DNA of 64,000 nucleotides from Thermofilaceae archaeon (lineage in GTDB: Archaea; Thermoproteota; Thermoprotei; Thermofilales; Thermofilaceae). Made by a program: the position numbers and the translations under genes. The stretch lies in the NCBI GenBank assembly GCA_038861545.1, contig JAWCCZ010000001.1, positions 491,926 through 555,925 of the forward strand, in the 5' to 3' direction. How positions within the stretch are numbered: position 1 is the stretch's first letter; each line of letters opens with the position of its first letter. Below, one piece after another: positions 21,440 through 25,326 of this stretch. The notes beneath the pieces are model-generated. The model saw only the letters and a program-made list of their open reading frames with translations. It had not been told where the DNA came from and searched no databases.

Positions 21440-22414
21440 CTATGCTTTCAAGATAAAGGCGGGCGCCGGATGCCTCATTCGCTTTTCAATGCGCCATCCA
21501 GCGGTTTTAATCCAATCGTTTAACTGCTCCATCGTCGGCAGTATACTGGATCCCAGAAGGTAAGTTAAAGGAGCAAGCACCAGGCTAAGCTTCGTATCTA
21601 AGACTCCCTGAGTTAGCAAAGCGTTAGGTGTGACTTCTCTAACAGAGTTCAGAATTGTAAGTGGGTCGCTGCACCAGTGTAGAATGTTAATCATGACCGC
21701 GAAGTCAGCACTCTTAACAACCCTATGAATTTCCTCCCCCCTTCCCACTCTAACTTCTAACCTATCGCTTAGACCGAGAACCTCGGCGTAGCTCTTCGCA
21801 ACTTCTAGGTTCGGCTGATAGGGGTCCACAGCGATTACGCGGCTACCCGGGACAAGCCTGAGAATCGTTATAGATGAAAGCCCGATCCCTGCACCTACGT
21901 CCACGACCAACGAACCTGGCGGAATGTTCGCCCATTTTACTACTAGTTCCCTTAACCGATCGTAACCCAGGTTATCTAAGAAACGCCCGAACACGGCTCT
22001 GCTTTCCGCTCCGGCTGAGCTGCGGGCCATAAACCTTTCTCCGCTCATCAGCGAGTCCGGGAGGGTAGCGTAAACCCTGTCGATAACCGGCTTAAATGAC
22101 ACGAGATACCTGTTAGTTACTGGGGGAGGGTTACCAGATGTGCTTAGCCACTTCAACCTATCTGCCTCCCACCGGGCTAAGCCCTCGGCCTCCATTATGT
22201 CTCCGATAAGTTTAGCAAAACTCGGATCGGGGAACTCATGGAAAGGTTTTCTCTCCATCTCTTTATCGACCCCGGATTCTTCCAGCACTTGACGCGCTTT
22301 CCAAACAGCGTACCGCTCAGTCTCTCTTACAGCTTGCAGCATCTCACGCCCCTCTTTGCTGCCGATCATCTTTAGCGTGAACGAGATAAAAGATAACTCC
22401 GGCATCCTAACCAC
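21440..22414 (-). CDS. Class I SAM-dependent methyltransferase
   Basis: Motif I VVDVGAGIG, VIAVDP, ADFAVMINILHW. Confidence 0.85.
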   Translation of the reverse strand: MVRMPELSFISFTLKMIGSKEGREMLQAVRETERYAVWKARQVLEESGVDKEMERKPFHEFPDPSFAKLIGDIMEAEGLARWEADRLKWLSTSGNPPPVTNRYLVSFKPVIDRVYATLPDSLMSGERFMARSSAGAESRAVFGRFLDNLGYDRLRELVVKWANIPPGSLVVDVGAGIGLSSITILRLVPGSRVIAVDPYQPNLEVAKSYAEVLGLSDRLEVRVGRGEEIHRVVKSADFAVMINILHWCSDPLTILNSVREVTPNALLTQGVLDTKLSLVLAPLTYLLGSSILPTMEQLNDWIKTAGWRIEKRMRHPAPAFILKA

Positions 22415-22778
22415 CCTCAGGTTCTAGAACACCAAGCTTAAGCAGGGCTTCCACGGCTTTTCTCACCTCCGGCGTTAGTTCGCCTTCACCTCTTAACGCC
22501 GCGATAACCTGTTCTCTCATACGCTCTAGCATGGAAGGCCAGAGCTCCGGTCTCGCTAACCTAAGCCTTCCAGGTTTGTTCAAAGGTTCAGTAACCTCGA
22601 TTGGCCGAATATCTCGTATATCTGCATTCATATCCGCGAGAATCAAAGTGTAGCCTCCGCATCCAGTGCACCGTACAACTGTAGTTCCCTGCTTAACCTC
22701 AACCACGAGCGAGTTGTCACAGTGCGAGCACGGGATCTTAGCTATCCTGCCTTTTCCTCCAACTTCAACCACTTCCAT
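22407..22778 (-). CDS. Small Zn-ribbon protein (CxxC-CxxC)
   Basis: CSHC...CTGC; overlaps both neighbours. Confidence 0.7.
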   Translation of the reverse strand: MEVVEVGGKGRIAKIPCSHCDNSLVVEVKQGTTVVRCTGCGGYTLILADMNADIRDIRPIEVTEPLNKPGRLRLARPELWPSMLERMREQVIAALRGEGELTPEVRKAVEALLKLGVLEPEGG

Positions 22779-23103
22779 TATTCTCCCCCTCTTTTTTGAA
22801 AATTATTTTTAATTCCTCAAGCCAAAAATTAATGAAATTTTTATCATCGCGCTCAAAAGCGTTTAACAGCTCATCCGGCGGAACCCTGAACCCTCTCTCA
22901 GTCAGGATGCAAGCAACAAGTATGATAAACAACCTAGCATAGTCAAGGTCATTATCATATAAGCCAGCTAGCCGTTCCATAAACCTCCTAGGCGACTCTA
23001 CAACCAGTGTATCAGGGTCACCCCACCCCTCTCTCTCAAACCCTCTTCTTACAAGCATTCCAGCCGGGTAAGCCAGGAAATCGAGAAGCTCAGTCAACCT
23101 CAT
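22765..23103 (-). CDS. Small helical protein, possibly DUF3227/NitrOD5-like
   Basis: LVVESPRRFMERLAGLY resembles the P..F...L..hF core of that family; SD-like GAGGTGA upstream. Confidence 0.5.
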   Translation of the reverse strand: MRLTELLDFLAYPAGMLVRRGFEREGWGDPDTLVVESPRRFMERLAGLYDNDLDYARLFIILVACILTERGFRVPPDELLNAFERDDKNFINFWLEELKIIFKKEGENNGSG

Positions 23104-23104
23104 A

Positions 23105-24118
23105 TCACTTCACCTCTACCTCTTTCTGAAGTTTAACTACTTCACGTAGCAGGTACAGAAGCGGAGTAACTTTCACGATGCCCGGTATCATTGTGAACTC
23201 TATCGCATCAATGTCCAGGTCACCTAGCGCTCTATACAATTCGGGCATTGCCGCACATGGTGGTTGGCCAGATACCAAAGCCTTACTTAGGTCAATGTAA
23301 GCTGTGTGGAACCAAGGTAACTGAACCAATGTATTTGCAACAGCGTAAGCGTCTCTTCCTTCAACGTAAATCACCTTATACGGTGTGGAATCCAGCTTAT
23401 CGTATACGCGTACCCTATTTCCCTCCCATAAATTAAGCAAATGATCTTTGAAATGTTTGCTAAGTACCCGGCGTGGAACTTTTTTCTCAAAGTATTTTTC
23501 GCTTTCTCTTTCAGCTTCTCTCATGGAAGAGAAAGGCCATTTAAACTTCATTGATAGAATTAAAAGGTCAACGTCATCGAGTAGTATATTTTTCTCGGAT
23601 AGGGAAAGCTGCGGCCCTCTCTCTTTTTCACCCTTTTGTAGATATATTTCAGGGATTTTCCCATACAGTTTTCCATTCGTGTACATTGTTAGCTTAGATT
23701 TTGGACTCCACCATGCTCTTTTTACGGCTCTAACTACTAAGGCGTTATCCTCAAAGTTTGATAGCCAGTTTTCAATAACTTCGTTTGCTACTGGCAATAG
23801 TCCAACGTAAAGGTAGTAACGACCTCCCATGATGCGCAGTTCCCTTGTAGACTCATAGTAAGGTAATTTTTCTATATACTTTTTACTGATAACTGCTATG
23901 TTTAAAAGTCCAGCTTTCTCCAGTTTTATTTCAAATCTTAAAGAAACATTTTTGGAAACATTAAATTGGGAGAGTAAACGGGAAACCGTGTATGGTGGTA
24001 AGCCGGATTTTTTCACCACTTCGGATATCGTAAGCGAATCTTCCACTGCTTGTATAACTTTCCATTCATCTTCTCTTATGTTAAGAAATGGGAAAAATTT
24101 TTCTGATATAGTCCTCAC
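23105..24118 (-). CDS. Putative transcriptional regulator with two Lrp/AsnC-like HTH modules
   Basis: N-terminal TISEVVKKSGLPPYTVSRLL HTH; second module LDDVDLLIL...PFSSMREA...LSKHF. Confidence 0.7.
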   Translation of the reverse strand: MRTISEKFFPFLNIREDEWKVIQAVEDSLTISEVVKKSGLPPYTVSRLLSQFNVSKNVSLRFEIKLEKAGLLNIAVISKKYIEKLPYYESTRELRIMGGRYYLYVGLLPVANEVIENWLSNFEDNALVVRAVKRAWWSPKSKLTMYTNGKLYGKIPEIYLQKGEKERGPQLSLSEKNILLDDVDLLILSMKFKWPFSSMREAERESEKYFEKKVPRRVLSKHFKDHLLNLWEGNRVRVYDKLDSTPYKVIYVEGRDAYAVANTLVQLPWFHTAYIDLSKALVSGQPPCAAMPELYRALGDLDIDAIEFTMIPGIVKVTPLLYLLREVVKLQKEVEVK

Positions 24119-24152
24119 CTGAATTTCTTTGTTTTGACCACTTATTTTTATC

Positions 24153-24308
24153 TTAAAGTGGGTCTATGTCAGGCGCAGGCACTCCTCCTGGCGGGGGTGG
24201 AGGCTCGGGAGCAACAATGCTCTTAGAAATTACGAACGCAGCTAGCGCAAGCACTAGCGCAAGCAGCTTCCACTTGTAAATTTTCAGTACGTATTTTATG
24301 GTTCTCAT
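24153..24308 (-). CDS. Unannotated 51-aa signal-peptide-like microprotein MRTIKYVLKIYKWKLLALVLALAAFVISKSIVAPEPPPPPGGVPAPDIDPL
   Basis: Translated by hand, ATG 24308 to TAA 24153; basic n-region, hydrophobic h-region, Pro-rich acidic tail; TATA-like TTTAAGTA about 25 nt upstream. Confidence 0.72.
   Translation of the reverse strand: MRTIKYVLKIYKWKLLALVLALAAFVISKSIVAPEPPPPPGGVPAPDIDPL
24242..24265. repeat. Perfect 12-bp tandem repeat (CTAGCGCAAGCA x2) inside the microprotein h-region
   Basis: Read directly from the sequence. Confidence 0.8.
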
Positions 24309-24339
24309 CAATAATTAGGTGAAAACTGTGATACTTAAA

Positions 24340-24393
24340 CTTTACGCCATTTTTGCAGTCACACATTGATATAGTTGCAAAAATGGCGTAAAG
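24340..24393. promoter_or_regulatory. Perfect 18-bp inverted repeat with 18-nt spacer abutting the microprotein TATA box (operator candidate)
   Basis: CTTTACGCCATTTTTGCA (24340-24357) / TGCAAAAATGGCGTAAAG (24376-24393). Confidence 0.75.
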
Positions 24394-24582: not shown

Positions 24583-25326
24583 GTGCGTAATTTTACCTTA
24601 TCGGATTTCAGGGAGAGGGAGATTTTAAGAAAACTGGCCCACATTATCTTATCGCTCCTAATGATTATACCTCTCTCTCCGAAGTATAGTTTACCAATTA
24701 CCGGCTTTGGGACCTTTGACAATGCTTTAACGACTTACACAGCAGCATTAGTTACAGTACTATTTGTTACGAGCTTACAGGTTAAAAAGCCAGAGCTGCG
24801 CGAGGCTATGCTTAGATTGTCAAGAGAAGCCAGAAAGTCGGTTTTACAACATCTCCGCGAGGTTATCCCGAATCAGGAACTAGTTGAAGGCGTGGAGCAG
24901 GCTTTAGATAGAGCTGAATCCGGTTTTCTCTCTATTATTGAATCTATTGAACGAGATTATGAGCGCAGGTACGGGTATATAGCGGCTGTTTGTGGTCTCA
25001 CAGGTGTGACAGCGAGCTACATTTTTTTCGGTAGAGAAGCAACACTTCGGGGAATTCTCGCACTAGCGGTAGTGGACCCGGTTGCATCAATAACTACGCT
25101 TTACTCTCCAGTTCAAGGTAGAATTTTAAAACATAATGTATTTTCGCCCTTCGCCTCTTTTCTAGTTTACTTCCTAATTTTGATAATTATGGGAGAGAGT
25201 ATAATAACTGCCTTAATACTGGGGTTAGCTTCTTCAACTGTAGAGCTCCTATCTCTTGAGGATAACCTTACGTTACCATTAGGTGCGGCATCACTATATA
25301 TTCTCTGCGTGAAAATAGGGTTATAG
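24583..25326 (+). CDS. Dolichol/phytol kinase-like membrane protein
   Basis: REILRKLAH, LAVVDPVAS, VELLSLEDNLTLP. Confidence 0.7.
   Translation: MRNFTLSDFREREILRKLAHIILSLLMIIPLSPKYSLPITGFGTFDNALTTYTAALVTVLFVTSLQVKKPELREAMLRLSREARKSVLQHLREVIPNQELVEGVEQALDRAESGFLSIIESIERDYERRYGYIAAVCGLTGVTASYIFFGREATLRGILALAVVDPVASITTLYSPVQGRILKHNVFSPFASFLVYFLILIIMGESIITALILGLASSTVELLSLEDNLTLPLGAASLYILCVKIGL

Follow-up and report, generated by a model that had tools for sequence, protein, structure and literature searches.

Does the small open reading frame (ORF) at the head of a regulator operon in a thermophilic archaeon encode the precursor of a peptide signal? The question arises from a Thermofilaceae archaeon genome (contig JAWCCZ010000001.1), of which we analyzed a stretch of 64,000 nucleotides, referred to below as the window. 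A previous sequence-only reading of the window had proposed a 51-aa exported or membrane micropeptide as the first gene of the operon, directly upstream of a gene for a tandem-Lrp regulator. To our knowledge, peptide pheromone signalling is found in bacteria and their phages and is not established in Archaea. Our results demonstrate that the ORF is a conserved gene, paired with one regulator family at about 40 loci of the order Thermofilales, a group of hot-spring archaea. We give a probability of roughly 45% to the reading that ORF, regulator and promoter palindrome form an autoregulated cassette that would work like bacterial RRNPP peptide signalling, with a receptor that has no tetratricopeptide repeats (TPR).

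The small ORF is a conserved gene

The ORF lies on the minus strand, runs from an ATG at 24308-24306 to a TAA stop at 24155-24153 and encodes the 51-aa product MRTIKYVLKIYKWKLLALVLALAAFVISKSIVAPEPPPPPGGVPAPDIDPL; its sole alternative start is an in-frame TTG one codon upstream (24311). Both its existence and its end 34 nt before the regulator, as claimed from the letters alone, were confirmed, with the regulator GTG at 24118. Behind the pre-peptide gene follow genes for a 337-aa protein (the regulator), a 112-aa protein, a 123-aa zinc-ribbon protein and a 324-aa methyltransferase, in frames that abut or overlap (Table 1). Comparison of the pre-peptide with Pfam and NCBIfam gave no meaningful family, a PsbQ match at E 0.054 being taken as noise. 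An Rfam scan of the region yielded no RNA family and only sub-threshold hairpin matches to the inverted repeat described below, and a word-index search with the single 51-aa peptide retrieved one near-identical copy as its sole match. In public records, the peptide is unnamed or listed as a "hypothetical protein".

The comparative sample comprised 95 loci with a full-length relative of the regulator, taken from 41 genomes of the same order. Most of these are metagenome-assembled genomes, in which an absence means "not found", and the counts given here are taken over related genomes and are not independent events. About one-third of the 95 loci carried a small same-strand ORF just upstream of the regulator gene, with a common build: the N-region is basic and amphipathic, the core is uncharged, the short c-region ends in Ala or Gly, and the tail, acidic and rich in Pro, has a C-terminus of the xPxPxP type. 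A profile hidden Markov model (HMM) built from 31 homologous peptides recovered the window ORF from its own genome with an E-value of 5.6e-14, the next best among 44,221 six-frame ORFs having an E-value of 1.2. Searching whole genomes with this profile, free of any positional constraint, returned 41 ORFs (E < 1e-6) in 29 of the 41 Thermofilales genomes. Thirty-eight of them were immediately followed, on the same strand, by a regulator-family gene, one was at a contig end, and two were orphans. In 79 genomes from sister orders of the same class, the profile had no match. An exhaustive HMMER search of 1.84 billion representative proteins returned just 56 matches, all of them 44-97 aa long and of the same architecture. 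Named relatives are Thermofilum, Thermofilaceae and Infirmifilum, and a search for related loci with the regulator protein returned three Thermofilaceae contigs.

A second set came from metagenomes, where contigs were scanned for DNA that would encode the C-terminal motif PGxxPxP(D/N)IDPL followed by a stop codon. All 13 contigs retrieved, at least one of which is identical to a contig of an already counted genome, encoded a signal-like N-terminus and had a regulator-family gene right behind the ORF. The check suggested with the original prediction, to look for small ORFs upstream of homologous regulators, thus came out in its favor, at about 40 loci and 13/13 metagenome contigs with the same build of N-region, hydrophobic core and tail.

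The ratio of nonsynonymous to synonymous substitution rates (dN/dS) of the small ORF was 0.13-0.37 for pairs with unsaturated dS, and the pre-peptide gene is thus under purifying selection. Since the profile is specific in its own genome, the family recurs across the order and dN/dS is low, the ORF is a real, conserved gene, beyond chance. The most skeptical explanation holds that the ORF is a chance or mis-called frame and that the 337-aa protein is no regulator but a sirohaem decarboxylase-type enzyme. Its first part is contradicted by a conserved ORF family with dN/dS below 0.4 at more than 40 loci; its second part is taken up with the structure of the regulator.

Conservation centers on the predicted mature tail

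Across the family, hydrophobic and basic residues alternate in the N-region, with LLxN(K/P)(K/R) after them, and its net charge ranges from +1 to +6. Uncharged cores are 12-27 residues long (median 14); a polar residue and four to seven more, the last of them small, usually come next. We placed cleavage sites with our own simple (-3,-1) heuristic, not a trained predictor. With position -1 limited by design to Ala, Gly or Ser, the rule assigned a site at the end of the hydrophobic part to 75 of 75 unique members, with Ala at -1 in 51, Gly in 20 and Ser in 4. By the same heuristic, residue +1 is Asp in 42 of the 75, and the mature part, from the predicted cleavage site to the stop, has a median length of 18 residues (range 8-56). 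In the window this part corresponds to the 18-aa Pro-rich acidic tail described earlier, which contains 9 Pro (net charge -3). A 14-residue core is too short for a typical membrane helix, and core and c-region together suggest a cleavable Sec signal rather than an anchor, while the members with cores of 18-27 residues could be anchors.

Other signal types were considered and rejected. The [KR]-[GA] motif of type IV pilin-like (class III) signals is missing, as KWK, NKK, NPR and similar triplets precede the core, with no Gly or Ala at -1. A lipoprotein would have Cys at +1, which is not the case here, and the hydrophobic part is N-terminal, unlike that of a C-terminal archaeosortase signal.

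Within the orthologue group of the window locus (regulators 45-52% identical), the last 12 residues of the peptide have a mean pairwise identity of 0.77, compared with 0.14-0.36 for the N-region, core, c-region and linker, and they read PGxxPxP[D/N]IDPL. From one paralogue group to another the tail differs (IDPL, PDPDPF, PSPDPSP, DPFPIPK and others), with predicted peptides of the DPKNDPFPIPK type in Thermofilum and Infirmifilum. The sequence-only reading had suggested testing for a conserved n/h-region with a variable tail; this needs correction within the orthologue group, where the tail is the most conserved part.

Three paralogues of a single genome (G008) take this pattern further: their ORFs of 27-29 aa have neither N-region nor core and keep the tail. 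These tails (e.g., ending in PIPEDPSPLPF) closely resemble that of a full-length form in the same genome, and the short forms have a conserved GGTGA ribosome-binding site and an inverted repeat of their own, TTTTACTTTT...AAAAGTAAAA. Because signal-less forms keep the tail, we consider it the probable carrier of the function, able to act without an export signal; this is the strongest argument that the sequences offer. The three short-form ORFs (loci L012, L024 and L035, on three contigs) start at oriented positions 1321, 1149 and 1087, and their regulators form one clade.

Together, the short forms and the tail-centered conservation weigh against three of the alternatives considered here, namely a regulated output, a stalling upstream ORF and, taken up first, an uncleaved, small, single-pass membrane protein with its N-terminus inside and its tail outside. 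Its conserved, cytoplasmic amphipathic N-region would then hold or modulate the regulator, the NitrOD5-like product of the third gene or both at the membrane, as a tethered co- or anti-regulator. Several features fit such a protein: an N-region pattern unusually conserved for a signal peptide, uncharged cores of membrane-spanning length (18-27 aa) in some members, a frequent third gene from a death-domain-like adaptor family, and, in the window, a Pro at +1 that argues against cleavage. The Pro after IVA had been pointed out before and is indeed present, although it is a local feature, found in this genome and one close relative only, with Asp, Thr, Gly or Lys in the other orthologues. The median core of 14 aa and the polar c-region behind it, in which positions -3 and -1 are small residues, speak for a signal peptide instead; the tail and not the N-region is most conserved, and the short forms dispense with N-region and core altogether. 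We therefore regard the tethered protein as rather improbable.

The regulator is a fused double Lrp/AsnC fold

A structural model of the 337-aa protein built from an alignment of 93 homologues had a predicted local distance difference test score (pLDDT) of 93.8 and a predicted template modelling score (pTM) of 0.91, and showed an alpha/beta protein with two units, each composed of a helix-turn-helix (HTH) and a RAM-like domain. A single-sequence AlphaFold model (pLDDT 39) was unusable. The best match in the PDB was NirDL (4czc, chain A; Foldseek E 1.2e-7), with a VIA-align Z-score of 11.4 over 267 residues at 10% identity. Each half taken separately (residues ~11-147 and 180-317) aligned with archaeal and bacterial Lrp/AsnC structures at Z 5.2-6.3 and a root-mean-square deviation of 3.4-4.2 over 125-132 residues, and the Foldseek probability of the Lrp/AsnC matches was 0.9-1.0. 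At the sequence level, the family profile (~340 positions) matched the Lrp/AsnC chain PH0061 with E 3.9e-5 in its N-terminal half, and comparison with Pfam and NCBIfam found no HTH_AsnC-type or AsnC_trans_reg domain at E ≤ 0.1, only sub-threshold HTH matches, and no TPR. The description "tandem Lrp" given before is borne out by the model and is correct as a statement about the fold, for a sequence that lies below the Pfam thresholds.

The NirDL match is what favors the enzyme part of the skeptical explanation. NirDL and the AhbA-AhbB sirohaem decarboxylases (PDB 4czc, 4ch7, 4czd) have the same fused tandem Lrp/AsnC architecture and are the best structural match. The identity of 10% and the gene context speak against it: the neighbors are the pre-peptide, NitrOD5-like, zinc-ribbon and methyltransferase genes, with no haem d1 or alternative haem pathway in view. 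In addition, genomes of the order carry 2-10 paralogues, each with its own promoter-proximal, operator-like palindrome. Together with the conservation of the ORF, these points leave the combined explanation with hardly any credibility.

Compared with the classical Lrp/AsnC (feast/famine) regulators, such as FL11/PH1519, ST1022, PH0061 and LrpA, the protein has the HTH and the RAM (beta-alpha-beta-beta-alpha-beta) fold and a promoter-proximal palindromic site at its own genes, here the candidate operator. It differs in having two units fused in one chain as an intramolecular pseudo-dimer, in sequence similarity below Pfam thresholds, in a nearly invariant second-HTH recognition helix, and in its pairing with a pre-peptide gene; as far as is known, it does not respond to free amino acids.

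The regulator family is present in 41/41 genomes of the order and is found weakly outside it, where four distant relatives from two genomes had no comparable upstream ORF. Loci with a peptide are scattered throughout a tree of 96 regulators, a distribution that requires at least 10-15 changes. Because the peptides are alignable with one another in spite of this spread, the simplest reading suggests an ancestral peptide-regulator pairing that was later lost several times.

In the second HTH, the helix in the recognition position (residues 216-234) reads SYHxRxHVxPxWxxN, with H222 invariant and H226, W231 and N234 near-invariant in all paralogues, whereas the first HTH varies. This contrast suggests that the first HTH alone reads the clade-specific operator.

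Two peptide-less clades have upstream regions of their own. One, which includes the second paralogue of the window's genome, has a purine-rich (GAA/GAG)n tandem repeat of ~100 nt in place of the small ORF (L089 1254-1361, own genome, contig C4; also L086, L090, L092, L093 and L095). Members of the other (L059, L061, L064, L067, L075, L084, L091 and L094) always lie directly behind a gene for a ~160-aa multi-pass membrane protein with PMATPLLAGPGSIY.

A conserved inverted repeat adjoins the predicted promoter

Upstream of the ORF, the element TTTAAGTA would be its promoter, judging from archaeal promoter geometry. A TATA-like box about 25 nt upstream in leaderless geometry had been proposed; the measured distance is 23 nt, and six orthologues have kept both the box, (A/T)TAA(G/A)TA, and its distance from the start codon. 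Abutting the box is a perfect 18-nt inverted repeat (Table 1), whose promoter-proximal arm overlaps the position of the B recognition element (BRE). The cores of the repeat, GCCATTTTTG...CAAAAATGGC, are invariant in six orthologous loci from three genera, with no conservation of spacer or flanks, and the repeat is also present in 11 of the 13 metagenome contigs. The paired repeat occurs once in its own genome, at the cassette only. Other paralogue clades have repeats of their own at the same position: AGTTTTTGTTTCA-N17/18-TGAAACAAAAACT, TTTGAYCTTGRT-N22-ATYAAAGTCAAA and, in the short forms, the pair given above.

We infer that each regulator binds its own promoter and is autoregulated, with the repeat as candidate operator. 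Each repeat arm, 12-18 bp long, would be of the right size for one two-HTH pseudo-dimer. The location next to the BRE is compatible with activation as well as repression by the bound regulator.

The operator also bears on a reversed reading of the locus, in which the peptide is an output. The regulator would sense, for example, an amino acid through its RAM domains and switch on a secreted or surface-exposed acidic Pro-rich peptide that acts outside the cell in cation binding, in the envelope or in interactions between species. Consistent with this, the operator is followed first by the peptide gene, amino acids are the classical ligands of Lrp/AsnC regulators, and linkage alone would explain co-diversification of peptide and regulator. 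Against it stand the signal-less short forms, which keep the tail beside the regulator and would be useless as exported effectors unless another exit route exists. Strict one-to-one pairing at ~40 loci, in many paralogues, fits cognate partners better than a member of a regulon, and the sole operator of this type in the genome is that of the cassette itself. On balance, an output role is unlikely, though it deserves to be kept in mind.

An autoregulatory promoter palindrome is typical of toxin-antitoxin-like or bacteriocin-like modules too. In such a module, the peptide would be a small membrane-active toxin or archaeocin, with the regulator and the third protein as controller and immunity factor. 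The copy number that varies per genome, the repeated loss and the small, hydrophobic character of the peptide agree with this. Its conserved part, however, an acidic tail rich in Pro, does not resemble known peptides of the pore-forming or the cationic Pro-rich kind, and a search of viral contigs found neither a close relative of the cassette's regulator nor the tail motif of the orthologue group. A toxin is very improbable in our judgement.

A further possibility concerns the position of the ORF in the transcript. A cis-acting upstream ORF could stall ribosomes at its Pro-rich C-terminus and thereby set translation of the regulator, as in SecM, MifM and VemP. Peptide bonds form poorly at PPPPP and at repeated D-P motifs. 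Like those secretion monitors, the ORF combines an N-terminal signal or membrane segment with a conserved Pro-containing C-terminal motif shortly before the regulated gene, ending at -17 to about +100 nt relative to the start of the regulator gene across family loci. This variable spacing is itself a point against the idea, as are two orphan copies without a regulator, the signal-less forms, and a downstream gene that encodes a transcription regulator and not a secretion factor of the Sec or YidC kind. The 8-56 residues (median 18) between the predicted cleavage site and the stop are too short for force-sensing, as the signal would still be in the ribosome tunnel at the stop codon. Moreover, the residues of the tail are conserved and clade-specific beyond their Pro content. 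Translational control of this type is therefore a long shot.

The 34-nt gap between the ORF and the regulator gene (24119-24152) contains an A/T-rich ATAAAAATAA about 22 nt before the regulator GTG, which may be a second, internal promoter. Orthologues, with peptide-regulator gaps of -11 to +22 nt, have no equivalent of it.

A candidate peptide signalling cassette

The proposed cassette thus consists, in order, of an inverted-repeat operator, a TATA box, the pre-peptide gene, the tandem-Lrp regulator gene and often a gene for a small NitrOD5-like protein. In the reading that we favor, the precursor would be exported and cut by signal peptidase, releasing a peptide of ~18 residues that would accumulate outside the cell. 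The peptide would be re-imported, or reach its cognate regulator in some other way, and its binding would alter the hold of the regulator on the inverted repeat overlapping the BRE/TATA of its own operon, resulting in feedback control. Re-import is possible, as the genome encodes at least five Opp-type binding proteins, whose presence is permissive only. Secretion, processing and binding are proposed from sequence, and so is the role of the peptide as a signal or tethered ligand.

Two further points support a ligand role. The modelled receptor fold carries RAM domains, which bind small ligands, and the peptide tail, operator sequence and regulator diverge together across clades. Many tails end in Leu or Phe; as a speculation, this residue with its free C-terminus could fit into the pocket where a RAM domain binds amino acids.

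The published definition of RRNPP systems (PMC10075063) lists a propeptide of 10-100 aa, a Sec-type signal, a receptor of 250-500 aa, a TPR receptor and adjacent genes. Four of these five are present or plausibly present in the cassette, namely the small propeptide, the Sec-like signal (by heuristic), the receptor size and the adjacency, and the TPR receptor is clearly missing. The cassette would therefore work like an RRNPP system by analogy and is not a member of the family.

The resemblance to RRNPP systems of Firmicutes and phages (Rap/Phr, NprR/NprX, PlcR/PapR, AimR/AimP, Rgg/SHP and ComR/ComS) extends to several details. A small propeptide with a predicted Sec-type signal is encoded directly beside a cytoplasmic receptor or transcription factor of 250-500 aa (here 337 aa), the conserved information of the propeptide is C-terminal, genomes have several paralogous cassettes whose peptides differ, and the signal-less short forms recall SHP and ComS. 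Differences are equally clear. The receptor is a fused double Lrp/AsnC fold without TPR repeats, the host is an archaeon (Thermofilales), and the peptide gene lies upstream of the receptor gene as the first in the operon. The predicted mature peptide is acidic with many Pro residues, the operon often continues with a third, death-domain-like gene, and no component of the cassette is homologous to an RRNPP component.

Several observations weigh against peptide signalling. Peptide and regulator would diversify together through co-inheritance alone, so their co-diversification is no proof of interaction. The predicted cleavage rests on our own heuristic, and the Pro at +1 in the window blocks bacterial signal peptidase I, so that this precursor may be cut elsewhere or not at all. 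The N-region has a better conserved sequence than that of ordinary signal peptides and may have a role of its own at the cytoplasmic face of the membrane. The most conserved residues of the regulator (H222, H226, W231, N234 and W137) are common to peptide-less paralogues and therefore mark no peptide site. Finally, the Lrp/AsnC ligands known to us are amino acids and not peptides.

A more far-reaching version of the signalling reading would make the cassette the first archaeal system of cell-to-cell communication by peptides, of the quorum-sensing type. Exported, cassette-specific acidic Pro-rich peptides would be recognized through their conserved C-terminus by the RAM pseudo-dimer of the fused double Lrp/AsnC proteins, which would form a new class of peptide receptor, with several orthogonal channels per genome and "short-circuited" intracellular variants. 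We put this forward tentatively, as an extension somewhat less likely than not.

Literature searches returned no description of this cassette, and it is the best sequence-level candidate known to us for peptide signalling in Archaea. It is compact, with a predicted ligand, receptor and DNA site in two or three genes, and is present in cultivable thermophiles (Infirmifilum and Thermofilum, with I. lucidum, T. pendens and T. uzonense as cultivable carriers). If the reading is true, the ligand range of the Lrp/AsnC fold would extend from amino acids to peptides. The family also illustrates how gene callers miss or leave unnamed a whole group of small, putatively exported proteins.

The third gene and neighboring genes

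The gene for the 112-aa helical protein starts 1 nt after the regulator stop and is conserved directly downstream in orthologues. Helical proteins of ~85-120 aa were found behind the regulator at ~14 of 29 testable peptide-bearing loci, versus 3 of ~60 loci without a full-length pre-peptide, and one of these 3 has a short form. Compared with Pfam NitrOD5 (PF11537), 5 of 15 third-gene proteins matched (best E 2.3e-6). The window protein had no direct match and aligned with the third-gene group in hhalign with E 1.8e-4 and a probability of 49%, which makes it probably NitrOD5-like. NitrOD5 is an output domain of archaeal response regulators from a "death-domain-like" family of unknown function (PMC5847659).

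Table 1. Coordinates of the cassette, its promoter elements and the genes behind it, in window positions.
Feature	Position	Strand	Basis
Whole 51-aa pre-peptide gene, including stop codon	24153..24308	-	ORF reading, profile match, family recurrence, dN/dS
N-region, residues 1-14, basic amphipathic (MRTIKYVLKIYKWK, net charge +5)	24267..24308	-	Sequence
Residues 15-33: 14-residue uncharged core (LLALVLALAAFVIS), then short c-region KSIVA with small last residue	24210..24266	-	Sequence
Residues 34-51: acidic Pro-rich tail PEPPPPPGGVPAPDIDPL, predicted mature peptide, conserved core	24156..24209	-	Conservation
TATA-like box TTTAAGTA, 23 nt upstream of ATG, preceded by BRE-like GTAAAG	24332..24339	-	Geometry, conservation
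Perfect 18-nt inverted repeat CTTTACGCCATTTTTGCA-N18-TGCAAAAATGGCGTAAAG, candidate operator	24340..24393		Conservation in orthologues
337-aa tandem Lrp/AsnC-fold protein, (HTH + RAM-like) x 2, candidate receptor and regulator	23105..24118	-	Structure model
112-aa helical protein, third cassette gene, probably NitrOD5-like (death-domain-like)	22765..23103	-	Conserved position, hhalign
Operon passengers with overlapping frames: 123-aa zinc-ribbon protein (22407-22778) and 324-aa S-adenosylmethionine (SAM) methyltransferase (21440-22414)	21440..22778	-	Lineage-specific

The zinc-ribbon and methyltransferase genes were not found downstream in orthologous loci and are for this reason placed outside the conserved core. 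On the other side of the cassette, a divergent gene (24583-25326, plus strand) encodes a 247-aa membrane protein without a Pfam or NCBIfam family, which was not found adjoining the cassette in orthologous loci.

The peptide genes without a regulator behind them lie at L099 1773-1967 and L100 777-965, both on the minus strand. At L099, the orphan peptide gene is followed by a 51-aa ORF and then an 81-aa NitrOD5-like gene with no regulator between, and the locus looks as if the regulator had been deleted. At a further locus, L127 (G034:C3), an 87-aa signal-peptide protein with a longer mature part ending in DEDDDNDSWFPDVSPF is encoded by an ORF that ends 37 nt before a distant regulator paralogue, and may be an enlarged variant of the same peptide family.

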